Assembly: GCA_009777275.1 (NCBI GenBank)
Contig: WRME01000001.1
Coordinates: 1-43,576, forward strand
Length of the DNA: 43,576 bases
From: Oscillospiraceae bacterium
GTDB lineage: Bacteria > Bacillota > Clostridia > Oscillospirales > Ruminococcaceae
Direction: 5' to 3'
Shown: piece after piece, positions 1 through 43,576 of the stretch
Layout: each line of letters begins with the position of its first letter
Position numbering within the stretch: position 1 is the stretch's first letter
Program-made: the position numbers and the translations under genes
The notes under the pieces: model-generated
Databases searched by the model: none
What the model was told of the DNA's origin: nothing
Seen by the model: the letters and a program-made list of their open reading frames with translations, nothing else

Positions 1-206
1 TTGCGGATTTTTTCCCCCCCCCCCCCGGGGGGTAATTGAAATTTTATAGTATGCAGCCCCCTATCCCCCTCGGGGGGGGGGTGCCGCCGCAGCGGCGGGG
101 TGGTCGGTAGGGATGACCGCCCTCGGTCATCCGTGGTTATCGCAAGGGCGGGTGTTTTTCTCTTGGTGCCCTCGCAGCGGCGGGTGTTTTTCCCGTAACT
201 GTCATT
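1..206. repeat. Mosaic repeat locus 1 (window start), an inverted copy of the composite at 27078-27212 and 43416-43545
   Basis: The reverse complement of 1-104 aligns with accaccccgccgctgcggcggcacccc...catactataa... seen at 27078 and 43416. H4(rc) at 81-104. GTAG-GGATGACC-gccctc-GGTCATCC-GTGGTTAT (H3) at 108-140. H4-type arms ending GGGTGTTTTT at 141-160 and 166-190. C13 (14-26) and G10 (72-81) homopolymers. Confidence 0.8.
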
Positions 207-335: not shown

Positions 336-3300
336 ATGCTGAAAACAAAAAGCAAAAAGTACATGAGGAGGGTGGTCTCTTGGCTTGTAACGCTCGCTAT
401 GATCGCAGGGAATTTTACATACTTTGCGGGTCTTGCTGCGTTTGTTTTACACGGAGACGACCTTGACGGAAGGAGACCCGTTGTGGTGTCGGCCTTCCCC
501 GGAGGAACGAGAACCGATGGTCACGTTTTTTTCGAGTCGGGAAGTGCTTCCCCGAGGGGAGATTTGACAGACAACAAATATGACCCGGATTATCTTTTCT
601 TTGAGTATCAAATTGACCTAAATTGGAGCAGCTCGATCACTGATTCTGACGAAACGGTGCTTGCTACGATAAACAACAGCACCAACGGTGCGGCATACTT
701 CAGAGATACGACCTTTGATGGAGATAGAGACAACAGATACGCTCCGAATTGGGATTATTTCAAGCAAGCTCAAGGTCCTTTGGTCAAAGGAATCAATAGG
801 ATTTCTATACCCATGACCAATTTAATGGACGGCACACTGGGCGGAGAAAAGGATGCTATCGATTGGAGCGACTTAGACAAATTCCTGCTCACCTATTATG
901 TCGGTGACCATTATACAACCGGAGTTACATTCATCTTCTCGGGTATACGGGTTGTGTATTATACCGATGAGGAGGAGGGGGATGGTTCCGATGCTACTAT
1001 GGCTCCGATAGCCGACTGGATCGGCAGCACTCCTCTTGTTAGAACTAACGTAGGTACTTGGGAGTGGGGCGAAAGAACAAGGCTTTTCGGAAACGGCGAT
1101 GCTACAACAATAGATTCTTCCAAGATCTTTTGGAACATAGAGTTTGACCACAAGGTTACAAAAGACGGTCAAGAACTCACACAAGCCGAATATGATGCTA
1201 TTACCGGGCAAAAGCTAAGATTGCATATGGGCTTCAGGGATGGTGATTCTCCGGAAAAGCGGTATACCCTGCATAGCTTTGGTAATGATTTGTACAATGT
1301 CGGAAAAAATACCATCAGCATTCCGCTCGAACAAATTATCAAAACACAGTGGACTAATGTCAATGCCAACATCCCTCATGTGCCGATAATCTTCAACGGC
1401 ACCTCAACAACCGATTATACTCGTGAAACTACTACCGGAGACAATCAAAACCGAGTTTTCAACTGGGGTAATATACGAGAGACCCGCTTTCAGGTGCAGA
1501 ATCTCACCCCCGATGCCGAGACCTTGCTTACATTATATCGGAATGGCGTTTTCTACATAGCGGACGAGGGTAAGGCGGCTCTGAGAGAGCTTGTCAAAAC
1601 AGCCGAGACCATGATAGACCCCGACTACGCCGATGGCGTTGCTTTGTCGGCTTTGGCAACGGCATGGGATCTGCTTGCGGCAGATCTGCCCTATCAGATC
1701 GATGTCGATGCGGCATATGCTACGCTCAGCGATATTATCGACAACTTCAACACAACGGTCATTACCGTTGATGATTTTGTGGGCGGCAAGAATCTTTCCG
1801 CTTCCTTTGATTTTCGCCCCGGAACAACTATATCAAGCCAAGGCGGAAACATACAGTTTTTCAATTGGGTTGTAGACAGATACGCACCAAACGGCGACAG
1901 AACCAATAAAGTTGGAGGAACAGGAAACGCAGGTAATAAGGATCTATATCCCGACCGCTCCAAACTCTTTTACGAGATTGAGTTTGATCTCGGGGTAACC
2001 AACCCGCTCGCAATCGCAAGCGGAGCTTATAACAATTTTACCGGAGATACCCCTCCGGCTAACTATGCGGCAAATGCTGAAGACAGAAAATACTTAACAA
2101 CACAAGAGTTTCAGGCAATTCCAAACTTTAACATAATCAGATGGTATATGGAAGCTAATAGATTAGAACCCGATACGGGCGGACGTGATATTGCTTTCGA
2201 CCTTAACAGGGGCGGAACAATGCCTATTGTTATCGGCAAAAACTCCCTAAGCATGCCGATTCAGAGTGCTATAGACAGAGATGTGTGGACAGGGAATATG
2301 TTCGACCCCCGTCTGCCCATGACAGTCAACGGTCAGACCGATACAAACTCATGGAGTTATTGGAACAACGGAGCACCTGGCAATGATGATAACGGAAATA
2401 GAAGATACAACTGGAACAGCCTAAGTTTGTTCAGGGTTGAAATATTCGCAAACCGTGATGATGCCTACACGGGAGACAGAAATCATTTTATGAGAGGCAG
2501 GATAGTCGATTTCGCAGTAACCAGACTGGGCTTATACTACTATGACGTCAACGGTAAGGACGAACTCCGTAATATGGTAGAAACTGCCGAGAGCGTTATG
2601 CAGGGCGGTGTCTCTACAGCTTACTGGTTGGAGTTTAAATTAGCATTGCATACTGCAAAAACTCTGCTTGGTGCAGTCAATCCCTCACATGACGATGTTG
2701 ATGCGGCAATGGAAGCACTTGAGACGGCCATGAATGATATTGATTCACCCAGTACCGTACAGCTCGAGTGGGGCAGAATCGCCGGAGACGGCACTGGCGG
2801 AACACCTCCGACCAATATAGCGGAAGACAAAATGAGCTTTACCCACAGAGTACCCGGCAGTAACGTAGGCGGCTCATTGTACATGGGTGTTGACAACGGT
2901 AACGGCGAGGGAACTTCTTTCGACGCAACCGGATACAAATATGTATATGTAGACATAATCAAGAAGAACAGAGTACCTACCGAGGGTATATCCGAGGGAT
3001 TCAACGGACTTCATTTACAGCATAACAATGCGGGCATTCCGTTGCCGGAAGCAACGATAAACTCGAGTAATTATGCCGGAACAGACCCGAAAACGGCATT
3101 GTCGTGGCAGGCAGAACTCGGCTCTAAAAAGCCGAATGCCGCATTGGTGAGATTCACCGTGCCTGAGGACAAAGCCACCGACCTAAGGTTCAGGTTTGAT
3201 TTAGAGGGCGGAATGGGCGGTAACAACGCTGAGGCTCACGCCAACGAAGAAAACCAAACCATCAGAATAGGCGGCCTGTGGTTATCCAACGATCCTAACT

Positions 3301-6300
3301 TTGGTGCGGCGGAAGATCATGTTATGGAACTGTACCGTGCCGGAGGAGATAATGCCGGAAACTTCACAGATCTTGGTAACGGCGCATTCTCTATTACAGC
3401 CGGAGGCGGCGGTCATTGGTTCAGAGATAGAAATTCTAATATTCACCAGACAAACGATACCAACTGGTTTGAAATTTCCCGTTATAAATATCTCTACCTT
3501 GATGTTGAGCGTATGGCTCAGTTCCACAGAATGGTGCTAACGGCCGACAACGGCGCTCGTGGCTTTAACATAAGACCGAATGATAATAATCCTAGTAACA
3601 TACAGGGATTCGGACCGGGAACTTCGGGTGTTATTCGGCTTGATCTATCACACTGGAGATTCGAGTTCGGCAGAAACCATGATATGACAATATTCAGACA
3701 ATTAGGATTTGTCGTTGACGGATGGAGCGATGGTCCTCTGACAATCAGCGGTGCAAGGCTCTCGAATCAAGATTACACCTATTCTTCTACCTTCGAGGAA
3801 CCTACTATAACAAACTTTGTAGTAGGCGACAATTTTGCTGTTGACGGCTCAATGACCCTCACAAGTAAAACTATGGCACAGATTACTACAACTCTGCCAT
3901 ACCCGTCATGGGAGTATGTTTCTAATCTAAATCCTAATATAAAAATATTTAGATTAAATTATACCAATTCATTCCCTGCGGGTCATACAGGCATTAATGA
4001 AAACGGAATACGAATGAACTATCATAACGCTGTTATAGGCGGTAATTATGATTGGTCTACCGGAATCCCCGCAAACAATGGCGACTGGGGAAGTTTCAAC
4101 CGCAATTTCCCGTTCAGATTTGCCGATCAAGCGGCGGCGGATGCCTTTGCGTTACAGCTAAACAAAGCATATAATCCGAATTTTGACGATCTCGAAGTTG
4201 CTAATATTGTAAACTATAGTTTTACAGAAATCACAAATGCTAACGATTGGAACTCGGTAGAATGGGATAGAATGTTCAACATCTATAACGCACACGACAT
4301 AACAAGACCAAGGAGTTTTAACCGTACGCTATTTGAACAGGAAACAGGTCTTGTCTTCACTCGCGGCGTAAACGACAATAGCCCTGCGTGGGATGTGTAT
4401 TTCGCTAATTTGTTTGACGGAGTTCGCATAGCTCCTACTACCCAAACCATCCCCATACTCCCGGAGATGGCATCAGGGTACGACATGAACAAGCTGGGCG
4501 AGCAGACGGTTACGATCAGCTACAAGGGGCAGAGTTTCACCTATGACATATTTGTGGGCGGACCGGATCTCTCGCTCGACAAGAGCAGCGGATCATGGGA
4601 TCTCGTGTATGGCTATGACAATGCCGACGGGCTTGATGTAACGGTGTCAAACACAGGCACGCTGAAACTTGACGACATCGAGGTTACCATCGACAAGGAT
4701 GATGCGTTCGAGCTGAATCTCGACAACCTCAAAGACCTTGACCCGGAGGAAGACTTCACATTCACAGTAGCTCCCAAAGACGGACTTGCGGCAGGAACAT
4801 ACACCGCAACCGTGACGGTTACAGTCGGTGATATAGAAAAGACCGTGACCCTAACCATAAACGTAGACAAAGCCAACGGTGCCGCCGTTAAAGAACCGTA
4901 CCTGTTGGAGGCGACCGATACCGCCATCAAGGTAAGGTTAGAATTTGACGGCACCGCAAACGATGAGCAGATCATCGAATCTGCCATCAGCACAAGCGAC
5001 AGTCTCGATGACATAATCGGCGACTGGAACACTACAGGCGAGTTTAGCGGCCTGAGCGAATACACCGAGTATTATGTCTTCGCAAGGTCTAAGGAATCTG
5101 CTAATTACCTTGAGGGAACGGCGGTAATGAGAGACCGCGCGATTAGGACACAAGACGTAACAGCTCCATACGGTGATATACTCGTCAAGGACAGAAGTAT
5201 TTTGGCAACCCTAATCAGCAAGCTGACATTCGGGTACTTCTTCAGGGACGAGACAACCGTCACAATCACGGGCGGCGACGCTCACTCAGGATTGGCCGCA
5301 ATAGAATACTTCCTGTCCGACACCTACTACGACTTAGATAAAGAGGAAGACTATTTAGAGATTCTCGGCGTAGATTGGGTAACAGGCTGGACAGCAAGCA
5401 GCGGATCTCCCAATAACGGAGTTAAGGTTGACAAAACACCGCAGTGGAAAGGCTGGATCTATGCACAGTTCAGAGATTCGGCGGGTAACGATAAAATAAT
5501 CATGTCGGGGGCTTTGGTTATCTTTGAAGACAACGCAGATGAGGTTGACGGCGGAATCTTTATCAAGAACCTGCTCGAAGACTTTGTTGTAGATGTAGAG
5601 TCCAACGGCAACACGATACTCTCAATCTCGTTTGACACGGGTAGCGGTATCGTAGGATTGACCGAAGACGACTATAGCTACAGCGATGACAAGATAACAT
5701 TCAAGAGCGATTTCCTGCGGACATTACCCGCAAGCAACGATCCCTATGCCTTCTTTGTACAGTGGAATCCGATGGGCGAGAAATATGTTGGCTCCGAGAT
5801 TAACGATGATGCTCCGGGCAGAACCGATGTCAAGATTACGGTAAGCAAAGCGGAGCAGGAGGCGCTCGGATTATCGGGACTTAGCGTAAACAAGGTTGCA
5901 TACGGCACCGACCCGATCGCAATCGAGGCGACAGGCGGCGGCGGAGAGACCAACACATTCGAGATAACCACCGATGCAATCATAACGCTGGATAACAACG
6001 ACAACGTAGCAAGCTATGACAGTGCTACAGGTCTTCTCTCTTTCCTGGGGACAGGAACATTCAACATAGTTGTAAACCAAGATGGCGATGATGTCTACAA
6101 CGATGCTAATGAGTTTGTTTATTCGGTAACAGTAGACCAAGGCATACCGTCTATACGGCTTGCCGCAGAAAGATCGCTTACTGACATAAACGACAAAGAT
6201 GTCATACTAACCGCAACCGTTTCCGGAGCAGGATCTACCCCGACCGGAACTGTGAGTTTCTTCAGCAAAGAACACACGGGTACAGGAGATTATGCTCTCA

Positions 6301-9259: not shown

Positions 9260-9483
9260 CCACGGTCACCGCATTTACTTTTTTGATAGTAATCCGCAAT
9301 AACAACGGATGACCGAGGGCGGTCATCCCTACAACCCTGTATTACGCCCTGAAACGCCCTCTCAGTCGGCGTTGCTGCCCTGTAGGGTATGCACCCCGTG
9401 CATACAGTCCTTAATAAACATTTCGTGTTTTTTGTGTATTTCGTGGTTGAAAAAGAATAAAAAAGTAAATGCGGTGACCGTGG
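9260..9483. mobile_element. MITE-like 224-bp composite bounded by perfect 25-bp terminal inverted repeats
   Basis: CCACGGTCACCGCATTTACTTTTTT (9260-9284) is the exact reverse complement of 9459-9483. Interior order: attgcgg(rc), H3(rc, 9308-9329), H9 (9351-9375), H1 (9381-9408), CACGAAA-type repeat (9420-9448). No coding capacity. Confidence 0.6.
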
Positions 9484-9485
9484 TC

Positions 9486-9671
9486 CTACTTCTCATTCTG
9501 ATTGACAAAATCCCTGGCTCTGTCGGCATCTTCCTGCCTGATTACGGGGATCAGTCTGTCCTTGTCACCCTGCATGGTAAACTGTGCAATGGGGTGCTGC
9601 TCCGCCTCGGGAATGACCGTCTTTGCGGGATTGATCTCGGTTTTGTTGCCTCTAACAGATTTTTTGCTCAT
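9486..9671 (-). CDS. Small hypothetical protein (61 aa), last gene of the activase operon
   Basis: ATG 9671 is preceded by GAAAGGA about 10 nt upstream. It lies 39 nt downstream of the activase stop on the same strand. Hydrophilic, no motif recognised. Confidence 0.45.
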   Translation of the reverse strand: MSKKSVRGNKTEINPAKTVIPEAEQHPIAQFTMQGDKDRLIPVIRQEDADRARDFVNQNEK

Positions 9672-9696
9672 AAATATTACATCCTTTCTCTATGGG

Positions 9697-9742
9697 AAAA
9701 ACACCCGCCGCTAAGAAAAAACACCCGCCGCTGCAGTAGGGG
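9697..9742. repeat. Two tandem H4 half-modules (AAAAACACCCGCCGCT x2) overlapping the activase 3' end
   Basis: Copies at 9697-9712 and 9716-9732, then gcagtagggg. They encode the last ~10 codons and follow the stop of the 9711-10676 CDS. Confidence 0.7.
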
Positions 9743-10676
9743 TTTGGCAGGAGTTGCAGCGATTGCCCCAAAGATCGGCGAATTTGCCGTCCTTATAGAA
9801 ACAGACCAGTTCGCAGTTGTTGGCGCAGTTGGTACATTCGGCGCCTCTGGTCTCAAACTCTGTGTCGATGATGTTAAAGTCAAAATCCTTGTTGCGGCTG
9901 CTCTTTCTGCTGAGGATTGCCGCCCCCAGAGCCCCCATCAGGTGCGAATTTTGGTCAACCAGTATCGATTCACCCGTGGCATCCTCAAACGCCTTTATAA
10001 CGCCGCTGTTTTTGCTGACCCCGCCCTGAAACACTATCGGAGCCTTTATCGGCTTGCCTTTGCCGACATTGTTGAGGTAGTTGGTCACCACCGCCATACA
10101 CAGTCCTGCGATTATGTCCTCCTTCTTGTGACCCGTCTGAGCCTTGTGAACGAGATCGGATTCGGCAAAGACGGTGCATCTTGCCGCTATTTTAGCGGGA
10201 TTTGCGGAAGAGGCGGCTATCTCGCCGAACTCAGATACATCATGCCCCAGCCGTTTTGCCTGAGAGGTCAAAAAGGAGCCTGTTCCGGCGGCACAGAGTG
10301 TGTTCATGGCATAATCGACCACTATGCCGTTGTCGATAATAATGATCTTAGAATCCTGCCCGCCTATTTCAAATATGGTCCTTGCTTGGGGGAATACCGA
10401 CAGAGTTCCGATAGCATGAGCGGTTATCTCGTTTTTGACGGCATCGGCATCGAGCATGGAGCCGATAAGTTTTCGCGCCGATCCCGTTGTTCCGACCGTG
10501 CGGATAGCGACATTGCCTGCCTGCCTGTGCAATTCGCTTATGGTATCCTTGACCGCGCGGATGGGATTGCCCTCGGTCCAAATATAATGCTCGGCTATGA
10601 TGCCGCTGTCGTCATCAATAATAACGCCCTTTGTAGAGATGGATCCGACATCGACCCCTAAATATCCTGTACACAC
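9711..10676 (-). CDS. BcrAD/BadFG (HgdC-like) ATPase, CoA-substrate-specific enzyme activase family, with C-terminal six-Cys tail
   Basis: ASKHA-type motifs YLGVDVGSISTKGV, IFEIGGQDSK, CAAGTGSF, FQGGVSKN. Extra C-terminal CX2CX3CX3C...CX2C (nt 9747-9836). 19-nt overlap with the upstream gene. The last ~10 codons (TPTAAAGVFS) are encoded by an H4 repeat half-module. Confidence 0.8.
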   Translation of the reverse strand: MCTGYLGVDVGSISTKGVIIDDDSGIIAEHYIWTEGNPIRAVKDTISELHRQAGNVAIRTVGTTGSARKLIGSMLDADAVKNEITAHAIGTLSVFPQARTIFEIGGQDSKIIIIDNGIVVDYAMNTLCAAGTGSFLTSQAKRLGHDVSEFGEIAASSANPAKIAARCTVFAESDLVHKAQTGHKKEDIIAGLCMAVVTNYLNNVGKGKPIKAPIVFQGGVSKNSGVIKAFEDATGESILVDQNSHLMGALGAAILSRKSSRNKDFDFNIIDTEFETRGAECTNCANNCELVCFYKDGKFADLWGNRCNSCQTPTAAAGVFS

Positions 10677-12866: not shown

Positions 12867-13200
12867 GAAACGCCCTCTCAGTCGGCGTTGCCGCCGACAG
12901 CTCTCCCAAAGGGAGAGCCAAGGTGACACACCCACAGGGTTTGCGATAACCCCGAAAAAACACCCGCCGCTGCGGCGGCACCCTCTTTACGAAAGAGGGC
13001 AGGGGCTTGAAATTTCAATCCTGTAGGGTATGCACCCCTGTGCATACCGTCCTTAATAAACATTTCGTGGTTTTTATGTATTTCGTGGTTACAATAATTG
13101 TCAATTGTACATTGTCAACTGTCAATTGTAGTGGTAGGGGCGGCAATCTGCCGCCCGTGGTTATTGCGGATTGCTATAAAAAAAACAAATGCGGTCCGTG
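12867..13200. repeat. Mosaic repeat locus (334 bp) upstream of the activase operon and hicAB
   Basis: Order: H9 12867-12891; H8 12901-12917; H4 12955-12983; H5 12981-12999; cttgaaatttcaatcc 13006-13021; H1 13022-13050; CACGAAA repeat 13051-13090; heptamer array 13096-13130; H2 13133-13165; attgcggatt plus a TIR-like aaaaaacaaatgcggtccgtg ending at 13200. Confidence 0.85.
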
Positions 13201-13204
13201 ATGC

Positions 13205-13233
13205 TTGACATTTAGTACCGTATATGGTACTAT
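13205..13233 (+). promoter_or_regulatory. hicAB promoter with embedded palindromic operator
   Basis: TTGACA 13205-13210, 17-nt spacer, TGgTACTAT with -10 at 13228-13233. Palindrome AGTACC-gtatat-GGTACT at 13214-13231 overlaps the spacer and -10. Confidence 0.45.
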
Positions 13234-13252
13234 AATAATAGGAGGTGAAAAA

Positions 13253-13477
13253 ATGGCAGGATTTGAAAAGACAATGGATAAGATGAAACGTCAACCTCAT
13301 GGCATAAGCTATGAAGAAGCGGCAAAGGTTTTAGAGCATTTTGGATATAAGTTTTTGCGGCAAAAAGGTTCACATTGTCATTTCAGGCATTTGTGCGGTG
13401 ATTTAATTACGATTAAAAAAGAAACACCGACCATAAAAAAATGCTATGTTGTTGATATTCTATCAAAAATAGAATAG
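13253..13477 (+). CDS. hicA: HicA-family mRNA interferase toxin
   Basis: AGGAGG at 13240-13245, then 7 nt, then ATG 13253. ~74 aa with FLRQKGSHCHF (HicA G-S-H core). Followed 17 nt later by a HicB-like gene. Confidence 0.75.
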   Translation: MAGFEKTMDKMKRQPHGISYEEAAKVLEHFGYKFLRQKGSHCHFRHLCGDLITIKKETPTIKKCYVVDILSKIE

Positions 13478-13493
13478 CATTCCTGCTTATATT

Positions 13494-13847
13494 ATGGATA
13501 AAAAGAACATTGATTATTATATGAATTTGCCTTATAATATAACTATGCAAGAAATACATGATGAGAGCGGAGATTATTTTTATGCACGAGTTTTAGAGCT
13601 TGATGGATGTCAAAGCCACGGCAATACCATTGACGAGACTTATGAGAATATCCGTGAAGCGATGGAGGGATGGATTGAGATTAAACTCGAATATGGTGAT
13701 GAAATCCCTGTGCCTATATCTAATAATGCCTTTAGCGGTAGATTCAATCTGCGTATACCGAAAAGTCTGCACAGCAGGTTGGTTATAGAGGCTCAAACTG
13801 AAGGAGTGTCACTCAATCAATACGCACTCTATAAACTTGCAAATTAA
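13494..13847 (+). CDS. hicB: HicB-family antitoxin with C-terminal ribbon-helix-helix
   Basis: N-terminal HicB fold pattern (YFYARVLELDGCQSHGNTIDETYENIREAM). C-terminal FSGRFNLRIPKSLHSRLVIEAQTEGVSLNQYALYKL is an RHH-type DNA-binding tail. Confidence 0.8.
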   Translation: MDKKNIDYYMNLPYNITMQEIHDESGDYFYARVLELDGCQSHGNTIDETYENIREAMEGWIEIKLEYGDEIPVPISNNAFSGRFNLRIPKSLHSRLVIEAQTEGVSLNQYALYKLAN

Positions 13848-17179: not shown

Positions 17180-17209
17180 TGTAGGGTACGCAACCCTGTG
17201 CGTACCGTG
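17180..17209. repeat. Solo H1 module (GTAG-GGTACGCA...TGCGTACC-GTG) between the GNAT gene and yabP
   Basis: tgtagggtacgcaaccctgtgcgtaccgtg. Same module as at 9381, 13022, 26962(rc), 31875(rc) and 37475. Confidence 0.8.
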
Positions 17210-26873: not shown

Positions 26874-27276
26874 TAATAATGCAGAATTAAGAATGCAGAA
26901 TGCAGAATGTTACAGTGGATAACCACGAAAAGCACGAAAAGACACGAAATGTTTATTAAGGGCGGTACGCACGGGGGTGCGTACCCTACTATAATTTCAA
27001 GCCCCCGTAACTGTCCATTGTACATTGTAAATTGTCAATTGTCCGTCACCCGCCGCTGCGGCGGCACTCTGCAGCAGACCACCCCGCCGCTGCGGCGGCA
27101 CCCCTCCCCAGAGGGGAATGGGGCTTACATACTATAATTTCCAATTCCCCTCTGGGGAGGGGTGGCAAACACTCGCAACAAAGTTGCGATAGTGTTTGAC
27201 GGGGTGGTCTGCTATAAGGAACATGGATTTAGGGGTTAGGTGGTAGGGGCGGCAATCTGCCGCCCGTGGTTATTGC
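26874..27276. repeat. Mosaic repeat locus (about 400 bp) between wzt and manC
   Basis: Order: GCAGAAT array 26880-26909; CACGAAA array(rc) 26921-26961; H1(rc) 26962-26989; spacer plus heptamer array 26990-27043; H4 x2 at 27047-27066 and 27078-27104; CCCCTC-ccca-GAGGGG 27101-27116; H6 27147-27162; H7 27169-27212; H2 27243-27276. Confidence 0.85.
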
Positions 27277-27286
27277 TACTTTAATT

Positions 27287-31760: not shown

Positions 31761-32157
31761 TGTAACTATTTTGTAACTATTTGGTTTTGGGATGACCGCC
31801 GCCCTCTCCGTCACGCCACGGCGTGACACCTCTCCCAAAGGGAGAGGCAAGAAGACACACAGGGTTTATGACGGGCGGTACGCACGGGGGTGCGTACCCT
31901 ACAACGTGATAACCACGGGCGGCAGATTGCCGCCCCTACCACTACAATTGACAATTTACAATGTACAATTGACAATTATTGTAAATGTAAATTTGCTGGC
32001 GAAAATAGGGTTAGATTTCTATAATTTCAAGCCCCCGTAACTGTCCATTGTTCATTGTAAATTGTCAATTGGCATCATTCCCCTCTGGGGAGGGGTGGCA
32101 AACACTCGCAACAAAGTTGCGATAGTGTTTGACGGGGTGGTCTGCCTCGAAATACTC
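31761..32157. repeat. Mosaic repeat locus (about 400 bp) between the epimerase gene and DUF1015
   Basis: Order: tgtaactattt x2 at 31761-31782; H3-like left arm plus GTCACGC-cacg-GCGTGAC 31789-31827; H8 31830-31846; H1(rc) 31875-31902; H2(rc) 31909-31940; heptamer array(rc) 31943-31977; spacer; heptamer array 32039-32071; H6 32080-32095; H7 32102-32145. Confidence 0.85.
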
Positions 32158-35222: not shown

Positions 35223-36518
35223 ATGCTCAGAAAAATTACCGCTAAGCTGAACCAATGGAACGAATCTTTATACAGAAAACCTCTCATCCTGCAAGGAGCG
35301 AGACAGGTTGGCAAAACATACACAGTTTTAGAATTTGCCCGGGAACGGTATGATAATGTCGCATATATTAATTTTGAATTTGACAGGTCTGCTATGGATA
35401 TATTTGCAAACAGCCTTGATCCAAAGGAGATCGTTCCTAAGATAGAGATTTTCACCAAACAAACGATAACCAAAGGCAGAACGCTTATATTCTTAGACGA
35501 AATACAAAAATGCCCCCCTGCCCTTACATCGTTAAAATACTTTGACGAATTTGCGTCAGAGTATCATATTATTGCAGCGGGAAGTCTGCTGGGGGTTGCC
35601 GTAAGCCGAGAGGAGTTTTCATTTCCGGTAGGCAAGGTCAATCGCTTGACGCTCTATCCCATGGATTTTGAGGAGTTTCTGATTGCGGTCGGCAAACCCG
35701 AACTCTCTGATATGATTAGGGATTGTTTTGCGGCAAATGCTCCTATGGATACTGTCTATCACAATGCGCTTTTGGAGCTGTACAGACAGTATTTAGTGGT
35801 CGGGGGTATGCCCGATTGTGTATCCAAGTTTGTAGAGACGGGTGACAACACCCTTATAAGAGCAACGCAAAGATTGATTTTAGAAGATTATTTAGACGAT
35901 ATGAGCAAATATAACAGCAAGAACGAGATAAAGAAAACAAGGCTTGTATACAGCAGTGTTACCGCTCAGCTTTCTAAAAAGAACACACGCTTTCAGTACA
36001 AACTAATAAAATCGGGAGGCAGAGCATCAGAGTTTGAAAACGCTATCGAGTGGCTGATTCTGTCGGGTATCGTTACTCGGGTAAACGCTCTCGAAACAAT
36101 AAAAAAACCTCTCGACAACTACAAGAACATCGACAGCTTTAAAATATTTATCTCTGATGTCGGTCTTTTGTGCGCTAAAAACAATCTGCCCGCCAATGAT
36201 GTGTTGTGGGATTCAAGCGAACTCAATGATTTTAAAGGCGGAATGACCGAAAACTATGTATGTAATCAGTTGGTCTCAAGCGGACATGAGTGCTACACAT
36301 GGCATAGCAATGGCGAAGCCGAAATGGATTTTGTAATACAGCGGGAGGGAACGGTTATACCTATAGAGGTAAAATCCGCCGATAACAGCAAGGCGAAAAG
36401 CCTGAAGACATATATAAACAAATTCAAACCCGAATATGCCATAAAGGTTTCGTCCAACAATTTCGGCTATGAAGATGGAATAAAAACCATTCCGTTATAT
36501 GCCGCTTTTTGTATATAA
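35223..36518 (+). CDS. AAA+ ATPase (AAA_14-like) fused to a DUF4143 / PD-(D/E)xK-like C-terminal domain
   Basis: Walker A GARQVGKT; Walker B LIFLDEIQ. C-terminal EAEMDFVIQREGTVIPIEVKS is a D...E-x-K nuclease-fold motif. Confidence 0.8.
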   Translation: MLRKITAKLNQWNESLYRKPLILQGARQVGKTYTVLEFARERYDNVAYINFEFDRSAMDIFANSLDPKEIVPKIEIFTKQTITKGRTLIFLDEIQKCPPALTSLKYFDEFASEYHIIAAGSLLGVAVSREEFSFPVGKVNRLTLYPMDFEEFLIAVGKPELSDMIRDCFAANAPMDTVYHNALLELYRQYLVVGGMPDCVSKFVETGDNTLIRATQRLILEDYLDDMSKYNSKNEIKKTRLVYSSVTAQLSKKNTRFQYKLIKSGGRASEFENAIEWLILSGIVTRVNALETIKKPLDNYKNIDSFKIFISDVGLLCAKNNLPANDVLWDSSELNDFKGGMTENYVCNQLVSSGHECYTWHSNGEAEMDFVIQREGTVIPIEVKSADNSKAKSLKTYINKFKPEYAIKVSSNNFGYEDGIKTIPLYAAFCI

Positions 36519-36535
36519 CAGGGGAGGAATGTCCA

Positions 36536-37273
36536 ATGCTCTATGCGGCAATAATGGCGGGCGGCAGGGGGGAACGGCTGGGCGGAGATCTGCCTAAACA
36601 GTTTCTGCCCGTTTGCAGCAGGCCCGTTATAATCCGAACCCTCGATGTATTTATGGGTCTCGGAGTTTTCGATTGTATCTATATCGGCATGGCTCCCGAT
36701 TGGATCGAACACTGCACCCGTCTCCTGAAAGAACACGGTTACTGTGATGGCAGCATAAAACTTGTTGCAGGCGGACAGAGCCGTCATCTCACGATGGTTA
36801 ATATCCTGCGTGAAATCAACAACACAAAGAACGATATTATCGTTACCCACGATGCCGCCCGTCCCTTTGTCAGCGGCAGGATGATACTCGACAGCATCAG
36901 TGCCGCCAAACAACATGGCGCCTGCGGAGCGTATATAGAATCTACCGACAGTCTTGCCCTGTCGCAAGACGGGGACTCTATCGGGCAATGTCTCCAACGC
37001 AATGGGATTTATTTAGCGCAAACCCCTCAGAGCTTTCGTCTCGATCTGTTGTTAGAGTGCATAGACAAACTCAGCCCGTCTCAAGCGGAACAGCTCACAG
37101 ACGCCTGTTCGGTCTTTAGATTATGCGGCCTGCCTGTAAAGATAATCCCCGGAGAATCAAGCAATCTCAAGATAACCACAAAAAGCGACATGGAATATGC
37201 AGAGTATGTGGCAACGACACGGAAAAACACCCGCCCTTGCGAGGGCACCCCGACGGCAATTGACAATGGATAG
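36536..37273 (+). CDS. IspD/TarI-family cytidylyltransferase (by memory closer to TarI, ribitol-5-P cytidylyltransferase)
   Basis: GGGGAGGA SD then ATG 36536. AIMAGGRGERLGGDLPKQFL, VTHDAARPF, AQTPQSF, SNLKITT. The last ~17 codons (RKNTRPCEGTPTAIDNG) are encoded by H4 and heptamer repeat modules. Confidence 0.75.
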   Translation: MLYAAIMAGGRGERLGGDLPKQFLPVCSRPVIIRTLDVFMGLGVFDCIYIGMAPDWIEHCTRLLKEHGYCDGSIKLVAGGQSRHLTMVNILREINNTKNDIIVTHDAARPFVSGRMILDSISAAKQHGACGAYIESTDSLALSQDGDSIGQCLQRNGIYLAQTPQSFRLDLLLECIDKLSPSQAEQLTDACSVFRLCGLPVKIIPGESSNLKITTKSDMEYAEYVATTRKNTRPCEGTPTAIDNG

Positions 37274-37505
37274 TTGACAATTGACAATTATTGTAACTAT
37301 AAATTCGCTGACAAAAATAGAGTTAGATTCCTATAATTTCAAGCCCCCGTAACTGTCCATTGTTCATTGTAAATTGTCAATTGTCATCGGGGTGCCGCCG
37401 CAGCGGCGGGTGTTTTTCCCGTAGGGGCGGCAATCTGCCGCCCGTGGTTCTCACGGATTGCGGGTGTTTTTTCCTGTAGGGTACGCACACCTGTGCGTAC
37501 CGTGG
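37222..37505. repeat. Mosaic repeat locus overlapping the tarI/ispD 3' end and preceding ymdB
   Basis: Order: H4 variant (GCCCT-tgcg-AGGGC) 37222-37251; heptamer array(rc) 37256-37293; spacer; heptamer array 37351-37385; H4(rc, terminator-like GGGTGTTTTT) 37389-37420; H2 37421-37449; cacggattgcgggtgtttttt 37452-37472; H1 37475-37505. Confidence 0.85.
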
Positions 37506-37566
37506 ATACAAAAACGCCGTGTTTATGCCAACGAATGACCGAAAGCAAACAGAATGGAGAGATAAC

Positions 37567-38334
37567 ATGAAAATTTTATTTATAGGTGATGTTGTGGGGT
37601 CGGGCGGGTGCGAATATGTTCGGAACAGACTGCCCTCTCTTAAAAAGGAGCATGACATAGCGGTTACTATTGCCAACGGTGAAAACTCTGCTATAGGCAA
37701 CGGAATCCTGCCGCAGTCGGCGCGGCATCTGTTCGACAGCGGGGTGGATATTATCACAACCGGCAACCATGTCTTCAAACGCAAGGAAATATACCCCTAT
37801 CTCGATGAAACTCAGGGCATCATACGTCCCGCTAACATCTCGGCAAAATGCCCGGGCAGGGGTCTGTTTGTACTCGATTGCGGCAGGGATAAGGTATGCG
37901 TAATAAACCTCATAGGTCAGGTTTATATGGAGCCTGTCGATAACCCTTTTTGCAAGATGGACAGGCTGTTGCAAAAAAACGAAAATAAGATAACAATAGT
38001 TGATTTTCACGCAGAGGCGACAAGCGAAAAGGGCGCAATGGCGCACTATCTTGACGGAAGAGTGTCGGCCGTTATAGGAACCCATACCCATGTGCAGACC
38101 TGTGACGAGCAGATTCTGCCCAGGGGGACGGGGTTTATCACCGATGCCGGAATGACAGGGCCGCAGCTATCGGTGCTGGGTGTCACCCCCGAATCTATCA
38201 TCAGCAAACTCACTACCGGAATGCCCGCAAAATTCGAGACAAGCGAAAACCCCTGTTTTTTAAACGGGGTAATACTGGATATAGACTCATCAAGCGGCAA
38301 GTGTGTGGGGATAAAGAGGGTGATGGATAATTGA
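37567..38334 (+). CDS. ymdB: YmdB-type metallophosphoesterase (TIGR00282 family)
   Basis: MKILFIGDVVG, NGENSA, GNH, VDFHAEATSEK, GTHTHVQT motifs. GGAGA SD before ATG 37567. The stop codon lies in a repeat module. Confidence 0.85.
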   Translation: MKILFIGDVVGSGGCEYVRNRLPSLKKEHDIAVTIANGENSAIGNGILPQSARHLFDSGVDIITTGNHVFKRKEIYPYLDETQGIIRPANISAKCPGRGLFVLDCGRDKVCVINLIGQVYMEPVDNPFCKMDRLLQKNENKITIVDFHAEATSEKGAMAHYLDGRVSAVIGTHTHVQTCDEQILPRGTGFITDAGMTGPQLSVLGVTPESIISKLTTGMPAKFETSENPCFLNGVILDIDSSSGKCVGIKRVMDN

Positions 38335-38471
38335 CAGTTACGGGGGGTAACCACGAAATACACTAAAACCACGAAAAGGGAAAAACACCCGCCGCTGCGG
38401 CGGCACCCTCTTTACGAAAGAGGGCAGGGGCTAATAATCTCAAGTCCCTGTAACTGTACATTGTCAATCGG
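38329..38471. repeat. Mosaic repeat locus between ymdB and the HD gene; contains both stop codons
   Basis: Order: aattgacagttacgggggg 38329-38347; CACGAAA array(rc) 38349-38379; H4 38381-38408; H5 38406-38424; variant spacer plus heptamers 38425-38471. Confidence 0.8.
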
Positions 38472-39204
38472 TATTTTTGTATCTTAATGAGTAGCGTGTT
38501 TTGGAATGCTCCCTATAAATATCACTCAGTATTCTACCGATGCTTTCCAGCACTAAACGATGGTCTGTTGTCATTTTGACCTTGAATATTGTTTCGATAT
38601 TGTTATCAATAAAAGTGATTTGACTGCGTATTCGACGTACAAAATCAGGAAGTGTTTCCGCATCACCGAGGTTAGACAGTATGTCCAACAATTTGAGAAA
38701 CAATGCTTTTGGACTCATCTCGGACAGTTTGTAGTTGGTATATTCGGACTTGTCTATCCACTGCGTTTCTCCGTTCGGTAACGACTTTGGATATTTCCCT
38801 TCTGCATTTTTTGCCTCGTTAGTCAGTTCAACAACAATAGTAGTAACCGAATATCCGAAAGTTTTCTTCATCCACTCAATTGTGGTAATCTGGTCTTCGC
38901 CGCGCTTGACGGCATCTTCTAAGTAGTCGTGCAATACCGCCGCCGCATACATAACATCATCACCATGTGAAAATTGATAGTGCATACATAGTCGGTAAAT
39001 CTCAGTACAGTGGTCTTCGTAAGGCAAACCGGTGGTTTTACGCACTTTTCCCTCATATGCTCTTTTTGCTACCGCTTTTGCCATACGCAAGAGCGGAAAT
39101 TGTTTTGCTGATGTGCCGGCCACAAGATTAGTTTCACAATCGTAGTAGATGGTGTCTGATTCATAGCAATTTCGATTATTAAAGTTTATAACGGTTCTTT
39201 CCAA
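38464..39204 (-). CDS. HD-domain hydrolase with RelA/SpoT-type HDxxED motif (small alarmone hydrolase-like)
   Basis: GLPYEDHCTEIYRL...AAAVLHDYLEDA matches the (p)ppGpp-hydrolase HD_4 signature. AAAGGAGG lies 8 nt before TTG 39204; the ORF-track start is 39249. AT-rich compared with neighbours. Confidence 0.7.
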   Translation of the reverse strand: MERTVINFNNRNCYESDTIYYDCETNLVAGTSAKQFPLLRMAKAVAKRAYEGKVRKTTGLPYEDHCTEIYRLCMHYQFSHGDDVMYAAAVLHDYLEDAVKRGEDQITTIEWMKKTFGYSVTTIVVELTNEAKNAEGKYPKSLPNGETQWIDKSEYTNYKLSEMSPKALFLKLLDILSNLGDAETLPDFVRRIRSQITFIDNNIETIFKVKMTTDHRLVLESIGRILSDIYREHSKTRYSLRYKNTD

Positions 39205-39243
39205 AAGTAATGCCTCCTTTGTAAAATTAAATTCACTTGAAAA

Positions 39244-39346
39244 CCGCAATTCCTGCGGGATTAGGCTTTAAGAAATAGGACTTGAAATTTCAATCCCATG
39301 CCCTCTTTCGTAAAGAGGGTGCCCTCGCAAGGGCGGGTGTTTTTTT
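39244..39346. repeat. Mosaic repeat locus upstream of the HD gene, with H5+H4 inverted relative to 38381-38430
   Basis: Order: ccgcaattcctgcgg 39244-39258; cttgaaatttcaatcc 39281-39296; H5(rc) 39301-39319; H4 variant(rc) 39318-39346. Confidence 0.8.
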
Positions 39347-39421
39347 GGCCAATCAACCCTTGACCCCGCAAAGATTTTATGATATATTATAGTTACAAAT
39401 TCGGAAAGGACGGTATGCCGG

Positions 39422-39826
39422 ATGAAAAAAGCCATCGTGGTTTGTACGGGTAATATATGCCGCAGTCCTATGGGAGAGATTATTCTCGCTAAGAGGGCGG
39501 AGGGTCTTGGGTGGATTGTAGAATCCCGCGGTGTTCAGGCTGATGTCGGCTCTGAGATGACCCGCTATTCACGCATTGCCCTTGAGGAGCTGGGATATGA
39601 CGTTCCCCCCCATTCGGCAAAACAGCTGACCCATGAGGATATAACAGGGTCAGATCTGCTTATCGTAATGACGACAGGGCATATAAAAGCAATAGCAGCT
39701 ATGGTTCCGCAGGCCAGGGACAAGTGTCTGTTGCTTGGGGTTCCCGATCCGTGGGGTTATGATATAGAGACATACAGAGAATGCCGTGATTCTATCCTTG
39801 AGAATATAAACAAAATAGAGCTATGA
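39422..39826 (+). CDS. Low-molecular-weight protein tyrosine/arginine phosphatase (YwlE-like)
   Basis: VCTGNICRSPMGE is the CX5R(S) P-loop. DPWG general-acid region. 134 aa. Confidence 0.85.
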   Translation: MKKAIVVCTGNICRSPMGEIILAKRAEGLGWIVESRGVQADVGSEMTRYSRIALEELGYDVPPHSAKQLTHEDITGSDLLIVMTTGHIKAIAAMVPQARDKCLLLGVPDPWGYDIETYRECRDSILENINKIEL

Positions 39827-41337: not shown

Positions 41338-42189
41338 ATGCCAAAACAATTTTTATCCCCACGCAATGATTTAATCTTCAAACTTCTATTCGGAGACGAA
41401 CGCAGTAAAGAAATTCTAACCGATTTTCTAAAGTCCGTACTGCTGATTCCCCACGAAGATTACGACACGATAACCATCCTTGACCCGCACCTTTTACCTG
41501 ACTACAGGGACGGTAAACTGGGCATAATTGACGTGAAGTTGCAGACAAAATCGGGCAAGATAATCAATATCGAGATTCAGGTCGAACACATACCGCAGAT
41601 GAGAGAACGGGTGATTTTCTACGATGCTAAGATGGTCACAGAGCAGATCGGTGCGAGCGAGAACTACGAGAAAATCAAGAAAGTCATCAGCATCATAATA
41701 ACCAACCACGAGTTTATAGAAAAAAGTCCGAAATACCATCACAGATTCACTCTTTACGATGCCGACAATCAGGTCGAATTTACCGACACAATCGAGATTA
41801 ACACGCTGGAATTGCCCAAGATCCCCGGCGATTCAGACGGCACACCATTGTGGGACTGGATGAAGTTTCTCGATGCGAAAAATGAGGAGGATTTGGACAT
41901 GGCAGCAGTAGCGAACACGCAGGTCAACAACGCCGTAATACGGCTAAAAGAGCTGTCCGCAGACGAGCGGACGAGGATGTTATACGAATCCCGTATAAAG
42001 ATGGAACGGGACATTTATTCGATAACAAAGGGGAAAGAGGATGCAGCCGAGAAGCGGGGTATGGAGCGGGGAATGGAGAGAGGCAAAATCACCATTGCCC
42101 GCAACGCACTTAGGATGAACATTCCTGTTGCCGACATAGCCAAGCTAACCAACCTTACCCCCGAAGAGATCGAATCCTTACTCCCATAA
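41338..42189 (+). CDS. Rpn-family recombination-promoting nuclease / putative transposase (PD-(D/E)xK, TIGR01784-like)
   Basis: LSPRNDLIFKLLFGDE N-terminus. GIIDVKLQ...INIEIQV nuclease core. AAAGGAG SD. Confidence 0.8.
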   Translation: MPKQFLSPRNDLIFKLLFGDERSKEILTDFLKSVLLIPHEDYDTITILDPHLLPDYRDGKLGIIDVKLQTKSGKIINIEIQVEHIPQMRERVIFYDAKMVTEQIGASENYEKIKKVISIIITNHEFIEKSPKYHHRFTLYDADNQVEFTDTIEINTLELPKIPGDSDGTPLWDWMKFLDAKNEEDLDMAAVANTQVNNAVIRLKELSADERTRMLYESRIKMERDIYSITKGKEDAAEKRGMERGMERGKITIARNALRMNIPVADIAKLTNLTPEEIESLLP

Positions 42190-42426: not shown

Positions 42427-43416
42427 ATGACAATAAGAGAGAAAACCGAGATGATAGAGGTTTCAACTCTGAGTAAATACGCTGCATTGTCGATTAAAAC
42501 AAAGGGACGCACAAGGCTTGAGAGCGAATGTCCCATGCGTGCCGCTTTTCAGCGGGATCGGGACAGGATTATACACTCCAACGCATTTCGCAGGCTCAAG
42601 CATAAAACCCAGGTCTTTATATCACCCGAGAAGGATCACTACCGCACACGTCTGACCCATACGCTTGAGGTTGCTCAGATCGCACGGACTATCGCTCGTG
42701 GATTGCGGCTCAACGAAGACCTTGCCGAAGCCATTGCGTTGGGACACGATTTAGGACACACCCCTTTCGGTCACGCGGGCGAAAGGGCGCTGGACAAAAT
42801 ATGCAGGCATGGATTCAGGCACAATCTGCAGAGTGTGCGTGTTGTAGAGTTTCTCGAAAAAGAGGGTAAAGGGCTGAATCTCACCTATGAGGTCAAAAAC
42901 GGCATCGAGAACCATGTGGACGGAAATGCCGCCACCCTTGAGGGGCAGTTGGTGGAGGTCTCGGACAAGATCGCATTTGTCAACCATGATATAGAGGACG
43001 CCATACGAGGCGGAATAATCACAAGCAAAGACATTCCGTATAATTGCGACTACTTTCTCGGCAAGACCAAAAGCCAACGTATACACACCGCCGTAAACTC
43101 GATAATACAGGGCAGCGGTGAGAAGATACAGATGCACCCCGAAATCAAAAAGGCGCATGACCAGCTGCTTGATTTTATGTATAAGAAGGTCTATATAGAT
43201 TCCGCCGCCAAGACAGAGGAAAACAAGGTAGAGGGATTGATGAGAAGTGTGTATGAATATTATCTCGCCAAGCCGCAAGGTCTGCCGCCATTTTATGCGG
43301 AGATAGCCGAAAAAGAGGACATCGACAGAGCGGTCTGCGACTACATCGCCGGAATGAGCGACATATATCTTGTCAAACTGCACAATCGGCTATTCGTACC
43401 GCAGGCGTGGGAATAA
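42427..43416 (+). CDS. dgt: dGTPase-like dNTP triphosphohydrolase (HD superfamily)
   Basis: FQRDRDRIIHSNAFRRLKHKTQVF, HYRTRLTHTLEVAQIAR, GHDLGHTPFGHAGE. GGAGGG SD 7 nt before ATG 42427. Confidence 0.85.
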   Translation: MTIREKTEMIEVSTLSKYAALSIKTKGRTRLESECPMRAAFQRDRDRIIHSNAFRRLKHKTQVFISPEKDHYRTRLTHTLEVAQIARTIARGLRLNEDLAEAIALGHDLGHTPFGHAGERALDKICRHGFRHNLQSVRVVEFLEKEGKGLNLTYEVKNGIENHVDGNAATLEGQLVEVSDKIAFVNHDIEDAIRGGIITSKDIPYNCDYFLGKTKSQRIHTAVNSIIQGSGEKIQMHPEIKKAHDQLLDFMYKKVYIDSAAKTEENKVEGLMRSVYEYYLAKPQGLPPFYAEIAEKEDIDRAVCDYIAGMSDIYLVKLHNRLFVPQAWE

Positions 43417-43576
43417 CCACCCCGCCGCTGCGGCGGCACCCCTCCCCCGAGGGGGATGGGGGGTTGCATACTATAATTTCCAATTCCCCTCTGGGGGGGG
43501 GGGGGGAACACTCGCAACAAAATTGCGGTAGTGTTTGACGGGGGGGGCTGGCTCGAAACACCCCCTCAGTCCGCGG
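43414..43576. repeat. Mosaic repeat locus at the window end, same composite as 27078-27212
   Basis: H4 at 43416-43442, starting at the last base of the dgt stop codon; CCCCTC-cccc-GAGGGG; catactataatttccaattcccctct; G14 (43493-43506); H7 43508-43545; H9-like gaaacaccccctcagtccgcgg to the end. Confidence 0.8.

Follow-up and report, generated by a model that had tools for sequence, protein, structure and literature searches.

What is recognised in the short hairpins that recur between the genes of a termite-gut clostridial chromosome, their letters or their fold? The question arises at positions 37222-39346 of contig WRME01000001.1 from an Oscillospiraceae bacterium, where an earlier note had read compensatory base-pair changes between copies of a hairpin-bearing module as a sign of selection on the hairpins. 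The whole stretch analysed here, called the window, comprises positions 1-43,576 of that contig, and all bare coordinates refer to it. Two kinds of module are concerned, namely the hairpins H1, H2 and H3, each preceded by the tetranucleotide GTAG, and arms of about 50 nt that contain a hairpin H4 followed by a hairpin H5. We consider it somewhat probable (about 55%) that both are interspersed repeats similar to repetitive extragenic palindromes (REPs) and bacterial interspersed mosaic elements (BIMEs), recognised as a folded hairpin plus a tag, and do not encode a dedicated RNA.

The window, an ordinary part of the chromosome of a flagellated spore-former of the Clostridia, carries spoVT, yabP/yabQ, fliD/fliS, cheW, ispD, ymdB and polysaccharide genes, and its 43.6 kb hold 12 GTAG-tagged repeats and about 13 H4 units, concentrated in seven or so intergenic clusters. 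It was compared with 526 kb of related loci, which are named by L-numbers (L001, L136, L186 and so on). H4 units, collected as AAAAACACCC-hairpin-ACCCTCTTT, were pooled from a genome scan and a metagenome scan, giving at least about 150 copies, 148 of them in distinct contexts. The genome scan with AAAAACACCCG-N12-CACCC was unspecific and returned mostly chance matches, with five real loci among the matches listed; the genuine copies include some in three Oscillospiraceae metagenome-assembled genomes (MAGs) labelled Lab288 and Nt197, labels that belong to a study of higher-termite guts (PMC7024585). The metagenome scan recovered at least 93 loci, spread over a dozen or so metagenome projects at JGI/NCBI, including the three behind the termite-gut MAGs with H4 copies. 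A scan of viral sequences gave chance matches only, and a single near-identical contig in the ENA metagenomes (L001, 19 kb) covers part of the window. When 37222-39346 was compared with orthologous loci through YmdB, no close relative was found; the nearest homologue in the collection is just 63% identical, making a site-by-site comparison with a close relative impossible.

The case for compensation began with two alleles of the H4 stem, and both were recovered. GCCGC-TGCG-GCGGC lies at 38391-38404, 12966-12979, 27052-27065 and 27086-27099, and GCCCT-TGCG-AGGGC at 37233-37246 and, as the reverse complement, at 39321-39334; the second to fourth copies of the former and the first copy of the latter lie at +1 relative to where they had been placed. 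The two complete arms that carry these alleles flank the HD_4 phosphohydrolase gene (38464-39249, minus strand) in inverted orientation, forming a 67-nt inverted repeat that is 85% complementary. The GCCGC arm (38378-38430, plus strand) sits between the 3' ends of ymdB (plus) and the HD_4 gene (minus) and reads GGG-AAAAACACCC-H4 (38391-38404)-A-H5 (CCCTCTTT-ACG-AAAGAGGG, 38406-38424)-CAGGGG, its minimum-energy fold including H4 and H5 alike (z -3.6), and the GCCCT arm (39295-39347, minus strand) lies upstream of HD_4, with H5 at 39301-39319, H4 at 39321-39334 and the tail GGGTGTTTTT at 39335-39344. As had been reported, 38381-38430 and the reverse complement of 39295-39344 are identical at 45 of 50 positions, and four of the five differences turn two adjacent pairs from G-C/C-G into C-G/T-A with pairing kept. 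The chance that four random substitutions in 50 nt land in this way and keep pairing is about 5e-6. The chimeric copy at 166-187 likewise proved to be GCCCT-CGCA-GCGGC, for which a full stem is impossible (fold z -1.4). Both motif types are far in excess in the window, with five occurrences of CACCCG-N12-CACCC against 0.01 expected and nine of GTAGGG-N12-20-CCGT against 0.32 expected. Within the genome of the window alone, the H4 and H1 cases are two-allele systems.

Pooling of the copies extended this picture. The short class of H4 comprises 132 copies, 116 of them (88%) with perfect stems, among which at least 18 distinct perfect stems occur; 698 of 722 stem positions (96.7%) are Watson-Crick paired, and the loop is TGCG in 111 of the 132 copies. 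Stems of 5 bp are 95.8% paired and show double changes at all five pairs, with none of 500 shuffles as high and slid controls at 34-60% pairing, and stems of 6 bp are 95.5% paired with double changes at four of six pairs. Covariation, the signal that the earlier note had proposed to look for, lies above all shuffles and all slid controls in the pooled copies. The pattern that it had named as contrary, two clonal families with many broken stems, is absent, and related DNA holds an intermediate between the two H4 alleles of the window (GCCCC/GGGGC, one pair changed). These data support a structural constraint on the hairpins, yet selection cannot so far be separated from mechanical self-correction of palindromes. 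The broader proposal that structure, rather than primary sequence, is selected or recognised stands for the paired stems, which vary freely, but not for the flanks and the H4 loop: AAAAACACCC, ACCC, GTAG, GTGG and the loop are conserved as sequence. Mismatches in H4 stems, which served as a strand test, show no asymmetry (seven G.T and eight A.C). A third class of the first hairpin was also seen, of the forms GTCAGCCGC-TTAC-GCGRCTGCC, GTCAGGC-TAAC-GCCTGCC and similar (L146, L183, L188, L204, L217 and others); in this GTCA...TGCC class a T.C mismatch at stem position 2 is kept and the other positions covary.

For the GTAG-preceded hairpins, perfect hairpins of at least 7 bp were collected from the 526 kb plus the window. 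GTAG directly precedes 68 of these 1229 hairpins, more than any other tetranucleotide and about 14-fold above a uniform expectation; every one of the 68 stems opens with GG, a G follows 63 of them, and 45 stems are distinct. The family form is the tag, directly followed by a perfect 8-9-bp hairpin based on GG...CC with a 3-4-nt loop, and then G(TGG). The REP descriptor of Quentin 2018 asks for GTAG or GTGG lying 0-2 nt before the hairpin on its 5' side, full pairing along a basal stem of 7-20 nt, a 2-5-nt loop and a stem base rich in G+C, three of four being G/C (PMC6006769). H1, H2 and H3 carry GTAG at distance 0, with stems of 9 bp (4-nt loop), 9 bp (4-nt loop) and 8 bp (3-nt loop), respectively; their first four stem bases are GGTA, GGAT and GGGC, the last alone satisfying the three-of-four rule. 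By sequence, we assign H1-H3 to the GTAG-tagged REPs because they match this descriptor and the GTAG super-family (PMC3733652). Like the repeats of described GTAG REP systems and their REP-associated tyrosine transposases (RAYTs), they have an adjacent GTAG, a perfect G+C-rich hairpin and a short loop, are high-copy and extragenic, show many stem classes per tag and have in relatives a RAYT with its contact residues kept (PMC2817692, PMC3733652, PMC6006769, PMC8266576); one difference lies in the host, a lineage of termite-gut Clostridia. Di Nocera 2013 reported GTAG REPs in Proteobacteria, Cyanobacteria, Chloroflexi and PVC, with Firmicutes/Clostridia unmentioned (PMC3733652).

The H1 covariation from T-A to C-G is borne out across the window and related loci, where C/G was counted 23 times, T/A seven times and mixed pairs never (both-strand palindrome matches counted), although two of the window copies on which it had been based are imperfect. 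The T-A allele GGTATGCAC/GTGCATACC is intact at 13027-13048, but in the 9386-9406 copy the basal pair is broken; the C-G allele GGTACGCAC/GTGCGTACC is found at 26964, 31877 and 37480, but the copy at 17185 has lost its ninth pair. The claim that H2 and H3 keep the same flanks around unrelated stems also holds, with GTAG-GGATGACCG..CGGTCATCC-GTGGTTAT at 107-143 for H2 and GTAG-GGGCGGCA..TGCCGCCC-GTGGTTAT at 13134 and 27243, and as the reverse complement at 31915, for H3.

A candidate enzyme for the tagged family was found in related contigs. Sequences of IS200 TnpA and E. coli RAYT, used as first probes, pointed to IS200 copies in L200 and L204 and to a RAYT in L186, which curated profiles then confirmed. 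Positions 651-1190 of L186 match NCBIfam REP_Tyr_transpos ('REP-associated tyrosine transposase'; E 1e-17), the protein has 890 homologues, some of them named RayT or from Oscillospiraceae MAGs, and in the PDB the family profile matches E. coli TnpAREP (4ER8, E 7e-10) and nothing else. GTAG is contacted in the E. coli protein by W94, Q95, E100, H101 and R104 (PMC6006769), and the equivalent positions in the RAYT family are invariant or nearly so, E100 being D here. If it acts on the repeats, the RAYT would bind and cleave folded single-stranded REPs, and a RAYT link for the window's own organism is a prediction from the homologues in relatives. The RAYT-like genes are single and lie in housekeeping operons (for example recO-RAYT-GNAT-mutS2), and single-copy RAYTs in housekeeping contexts have been described (PMC5581495). 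Bertels 2017 reported Group 1 RAYTs in Clostridia, with 12 occurrences of flanking 16-mers versus 57 for Group 2 and 140 for Group 3. Unlike in classical systems, where REPs flank the gene, GTAG REPs lie here in frame within the RAYT open reading frames (ORFs), between the HuH and Tyr motifs (L186 921-999, L221, L222 and L223 10259-10282); they are translated as VGDDGNRP and RADCHPPLR, and their number varies among homologues. Some RAYT homologues also carry translated REP runs at the protein ends.

The H4/H5 arms have a different architecture. Each arm consists of AAAAACACCC, a variable 5-6-bp H4 stem with a TGCG loop, ACCC, H5 (CCCTCTTT-loop-AAAGAGGG) and YARGG, and H4 and H5 are both present in minimum-energy DNA folds. 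Conservation stops a few bases outside AAAAACACCC and after YARGG, and a target-site duplication was looked for beyond the arms, with no signal. Most arms form convergent inverted pairs of about 100-120 nt (~105-nt doublets). The two arms share an H4 stem in just one of 40 distinct doublets, against 3.15 expected under random pairing, a deficit that is not significant alone (P = 0.17). A stronger signal is that of stem length, as 24 of the 40 doublets combine one 5-bp stem of the GGNNC type and one 6-bp stem of the GCCNNN type, against about 15 expected from class frequencies. Doublets with homologous spacers were found at unrelated sites, carrying different stems.

How the modules sit among genes and how they compare with known RNAs bear on whether DNA or RNA is recognised. 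Doublets occur in tandem, divergent and convergent gene settings alike, and two of the 22 with both flanks called are in a convergent context; single arms have no preferred orientation with respect to neighbouring genes. A pattern scan for intrinsic terminators flags H4, yet the arms are unbiased in orientation and position relative to genes. Rfam gave no match at the gathering score for the whole window and none at E <= 1 for 37100-39500, and a tRNA search found nothing. Context, mismatches and the Rfam result speak against both a one-strand dedicated RNA and a simple terminator, and the lack of orientation bias together with the equal G.T and A.C mismatches favours recognition of DNA over that of RNA from one strand. 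Individual H4 copies may nevertheless terminate transcription.

The copies also record how H4 alleles change. Several imperfect stems are exact chimeras in which the left arm of one allele meets the right arm of another, as at 166-187 in the window and in L139, L184, L214 and L220, and four more junctions in the window lie in or at the H4 loop (142, 9697-9714, 9717-9745 and 37458). In an orthologous doublet with flanks about 87-90% identical (L140 11242-11355 and L153 13873-13985), the two H4 hairpins have exchanged places, and the interior from H5 through the spacer to H5 is colinear and in the same orientation. From these chimeras, loop junctions and swapped hairpins, and from the different stems at homologous spacers, the four-substitution difference in the window more likely arose by exchange of half-hairpins or cassettes with a break in the loop than by two paired point mutations. 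Even so, a pool of at least 18 paired alleles can only exist if pairing is maintained.

Based on these data, we propose that an enzyme recognising folded single-stranded DNA may copy and maintain the elements, the recognised object being a hairpin of the right geometry with a short tag and, for H4, the loop. Stem letters would then be free as long as they pair, and many stem alleles would stand behind invariant flanks. For the GTAG family the enzyme would be the RAYT-type HUH tyrosine transposase of related genomes, and the H4/H5 arms, which are mixed with the REPs in the same intergenic mosaics, would form an untagged second family of this general type, possibly served by the same or a similar enzyme. 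New alleles at a site would come mostly from half-hairpin or whole-cassette exchange with a break in the loop, and more rarely from point compensation.

Several results weigh against this proposal. The H4/H5 arms lack the REP tag, their two strands carrying CACCC and GGGT instead; their 5-6-bp H4 stem is below the minimum of the REP descriptor; and the invariant TGCG loop is not a known REP feature and forms, on the AAAAACACCC strand, a UNCG-type tetraloop, which hints at RNA. With regard to the enzyme, no RAYT gene is present in the 43.6-kb window or in L001, the L186 protein scores 64 bits where the curated NCBIfam cut-off is 80, the RAYT homologues (L186, L221-L223) have no flanking REPs, unlike classical REPtrons, and the RAYT-bearing contigs L221-L223 hold few REPs. 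Finally, no insertion or empty-site polymorphism was caught, and mobility of the elements is suggested by the dispersed homologous doublets only.

The likeliest of the alternatives, though itself improbable, is that the arms act at the RNA level, either terminating transcription intrinsically when in the GGGTGTTTTT orientation or stabilising transcripts as 5'/3' stem-loops; selection on RNA folding would then keep the stems paired, and TGCG would be retained as a stable UNCG tetraloop. Such a role would fit the terminator-like H4 units of the window, one following the HD_4 gene (38405-38390, minus) and one following ispD (37393-37408, plus), the loop variants TGCG and TACG, both of them UNCG with mostly C-G closing pairs, and the single arms that directly follow promoters ahead of the ribosome-binding site in six loci (L065, L081, L151, L192, L195 and L214); it fits poorly with the unbiased orientation and rarely convergent context described above, with the GGGTG that intervenes between the 5-6-bp stem and the T-run, and with the mismatch and Rfam results, and symmetric inverted doublets and half-hairpin chimeras are properties of DNA elements. 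Next in plausibility, and also unlikely, is that the H4/H5 arm is no REP but represents an element class of its own, so far undescribed and confined to termite-gut Oscillospiraceae. Its first hairpin would then be an exchangeable cassette, and a dedicated enzyme might nick the invariant TGCG loop and so exchange half or whole hairpins between arms and copies, which would account for the chimeras, for junctions in loops, for the swap in the orthologous doublet and for the enforced pairing of 5-bp with 6-bp stems. If true, this would mean that cellular DNA holds a system resembling flip/flop or an address code; otherwise the arm would be a new structured RNA with a UNCG hairpin.

The chimeras, loop junctions and swapped hairpins, together with allele differences of several bases at once (four in the window), would also be expected if there were no structural selection at all, with template switching or gene conversion correcting quasi-palindromes mechanically and alleles spreading by conversion between copies. 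We regard this as rather unlikely, ranking behind the two preceding explanations, because self-correction leaves unexplained the flanks and loop that are invariant across species, the restriction to G+C-rich stems of 5-6 bp and the pairing of 5-bp with 6-bp stems, and because it should erase the T.C mismatch conserved in the GTCA...TGCC class. Least probable, and very unlikely in our view, is that the doublets are classical miniature inverted-repeat transposable elements, that is, internally deleted derivatives of DDE-type insertion sequences (ISs) whose terminal inverted repeats are the arms. The ~50-nt inverted ends of the doublets (AAAAACACCC...GGGTGTTTTT) have this form, and in L136 (1693-3733) an IS4/Tn5-like transposase gene (462 aa) is bracketed by two inverted arms. 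However, the L136 IS ends inside the H5 loop and a related IS in L200 (about 2185-3655) has an arm on one side only, so the arrangement looks like an IS inserted into an element; moreover, conservation falls off outside the arms with no target-site duplication, the two arms of a doublet differ in their H4 stem, no transposase family recurs beside the elements in the 526 kb, and no parent IS was found. An IS200-type TnpA gene (1673-2059) adjoins the L200 IS.

REPs, BIMEs and REPINs are known kinds of element, and our preferred interpretation, that the modules are repeats of this kind, can be set against each of them. With E. coli BIMEs, the clusters share the form of intergenic mosaics of short motifs whose palindromic units alternate in orientation (PMC2817692). 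The H4/H5 arms differ in having no GTAG, two hairpins each, an invariant TGCG loop and far more stem diversity. The two unit types of E. coli BIMEs are Y and Z, and H4 doublets are likewise pairs of two different unit types. IS1397 inserts in the palindromic units of E. coli, to which the IS in the hairpin loop in L136 is comparable. REPs in general serve as IS targets (PMC3733652). REPINs (Bertels and Rainey 2011, PMC3116915) are similar to the doublets in being an inverted pair of units with a short spacer, about 100 nt long and dispersed as a unit, whereas the arms of a REPIN are nearly identical and together make a single long hairpin. In the doublets the arm stems differ systematically, and each arm therefore folds separately. 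A further likeness, by analogy only, is to the inverted terminal repeats of adeno-associated virus (AAV), in that small palindromes nested in a larger one have swapped their order (L140 versus L153). In the AAV repeats, internal palindromes occur in flip and flop arrangements, and the nuclease involved is of the HUH family, as the RAYT proposed here would be; the difference is that the interior between the hairpins is not inverted here and that there is no replication origin or viral context. The novelty lies in the host lineage, in an untagged arm of two hairpins whose loop is invariant and whose stem is hypervariable, in doublets that are heterotypic, in the swap of hairpins and in the REPs within RAYT genes, and a literature search for such repeats in termite-gut Clostridia found no description.

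REPs and RAYTs have been studied almost entirely in Proteobacteria, and these termite-gut Clostridia are REP-rich. At least 18 stems behind invariant flanks and loop amount to a natural mutational series in which to ask whether geometry, tag or loop is read by an enzyme that recognises hairpins, and the chimeras and swapped hairpins inform how palindromic repeats diversify while staying paired. In practice, such repeats break assemblies, create spurious ORFs and can distort gene calls in termite-gut MAGs.

The modules of the window are clustered in the manner of BIMEs at 59-197, 9296-9745, 12956-13165, 26937-27283, 31852-32144, 37221-37507 and 43414-43550. The cluster at 37221-37507 begins with a doublet of ~200 nt (37221-37419) with GCCCT at one end and GCCGC at the other, whose whole fold reaches -97.8 kcal/mol (z -11). 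Its left end is an H4 unit on the plus strand (37221-37250, hairpin 37233-37246) reading GG-AAAAACACCC-GCCCT-TGCG-AGGGC-ACCC, its interior (37251-37389) consists of CAATTG-rich inverted arms and a repeated module CTATAATTTCAAGCCCCCGTAACTGTCCATTGT, and its right end is a terminator-like H4 unit on the minus strand (37390-37420) that reads GGGT-GCCGC-CGCA-GCGGC-GGGTGTTTTT-CCC as plus strand. A promoter-like CTGACA-18-TATAAT (11 of 12 matches, 37308-37337) lies inside the doublet, facing ymdB, and its TATAAT begins a repeated module CTATAATTTCAAGCCCCCGTAACTG with further copies at 26989 and 32019. On the plus strand, the doublet is followed by an H3 REP (37421-37454; GTAG-GGGCGGCA-ATC-TGCCGCCC-GTGGTT; fold -11 kcal/mol, z -3.5), a truncated H4 tail TTGCGGGTGTTTTTT fused to a REP flank (37458-37472) and an H1 REP of the C-G allele (37476-37507; GTAG-GGTACGCAC-ACCT-GTGCGTACC-GTGGAT).

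Near the start of the window, an H2 REP with the GGATGACCG stem (107-159, plus) is joined via GTGGTTAT to a right H4 half that starts from the loop (CGCA-AGGGC-GGGTGTTTTT), and the chimeric H4 follows at 163-197 (plus), its left arm from GCCCT, its right arm from GCCGC, with the stem broken and the allele switch in the loop. The mosaic at 9296-9745 contains an H2 REP (9305-9332, minus), an imperfect H1 REP (9382-9409) and two left H4 halves cut in the loop (9697-9714 and 9717-9734), the second fused to AGTAGGGG. At 12956-13165 (plus) an H4/H5 arm (12956-13005), a T-A H1 REP (13023-13050), a CAATTG module and an H3 REP (13134-13158) follow one another, and a HicA/HicB toxin-antitoxin pair (13205-13847) adjoins this cluster. 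The mosaic at 26937-27283 comprises an H1 REP (26962-26989, minus), tandem H4 units (27047-27069 and 27082-27103), an H3 REP (27243-27267), a variant second hairpin CCCCTCCCC..GGGG and a 111-nt D2 module, and that at 31852-32144 comprises H1 (31875-31902, minus) and H3 (31915-31939, minus) REPs, a CAATTG doublet and a D2 module. The 111-nt module family has members at 27101-27211, 32034-32144 and 43440-43550, with a CCCCTC..GGGG hairpin and a 14-bp hairpin AAACACTCGCAAC/GTTGCGATAGTGTTT.

Gene prediction may be affected by the modules: mechanical ORFs at 9309-10661 (plus) and 36509-37273 (plus) begin or finish in repeat modules, one ATG lies inside an H2 hairpin, and the ispD ORF extends into the H4 unit at 37221. 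All-against-all ORF clustering of the 526 kb, as a search for a recurrent transposase, returned only housekeeping genes, one serine recombinase family and one IS4/Tn5 IS. The window itself carries a PD-(D/E)XK 'transposase' gene (PDDEXK_2, Rpn-like; 41338-42189), of which L177 holds a partial copy that is 72% identical. Long C-run/G-run palindromes occupy both window ends (1-46 and 43472-43517), and the end regions 12-104 and 43416-43508 are 85% complementary over 93 nt.

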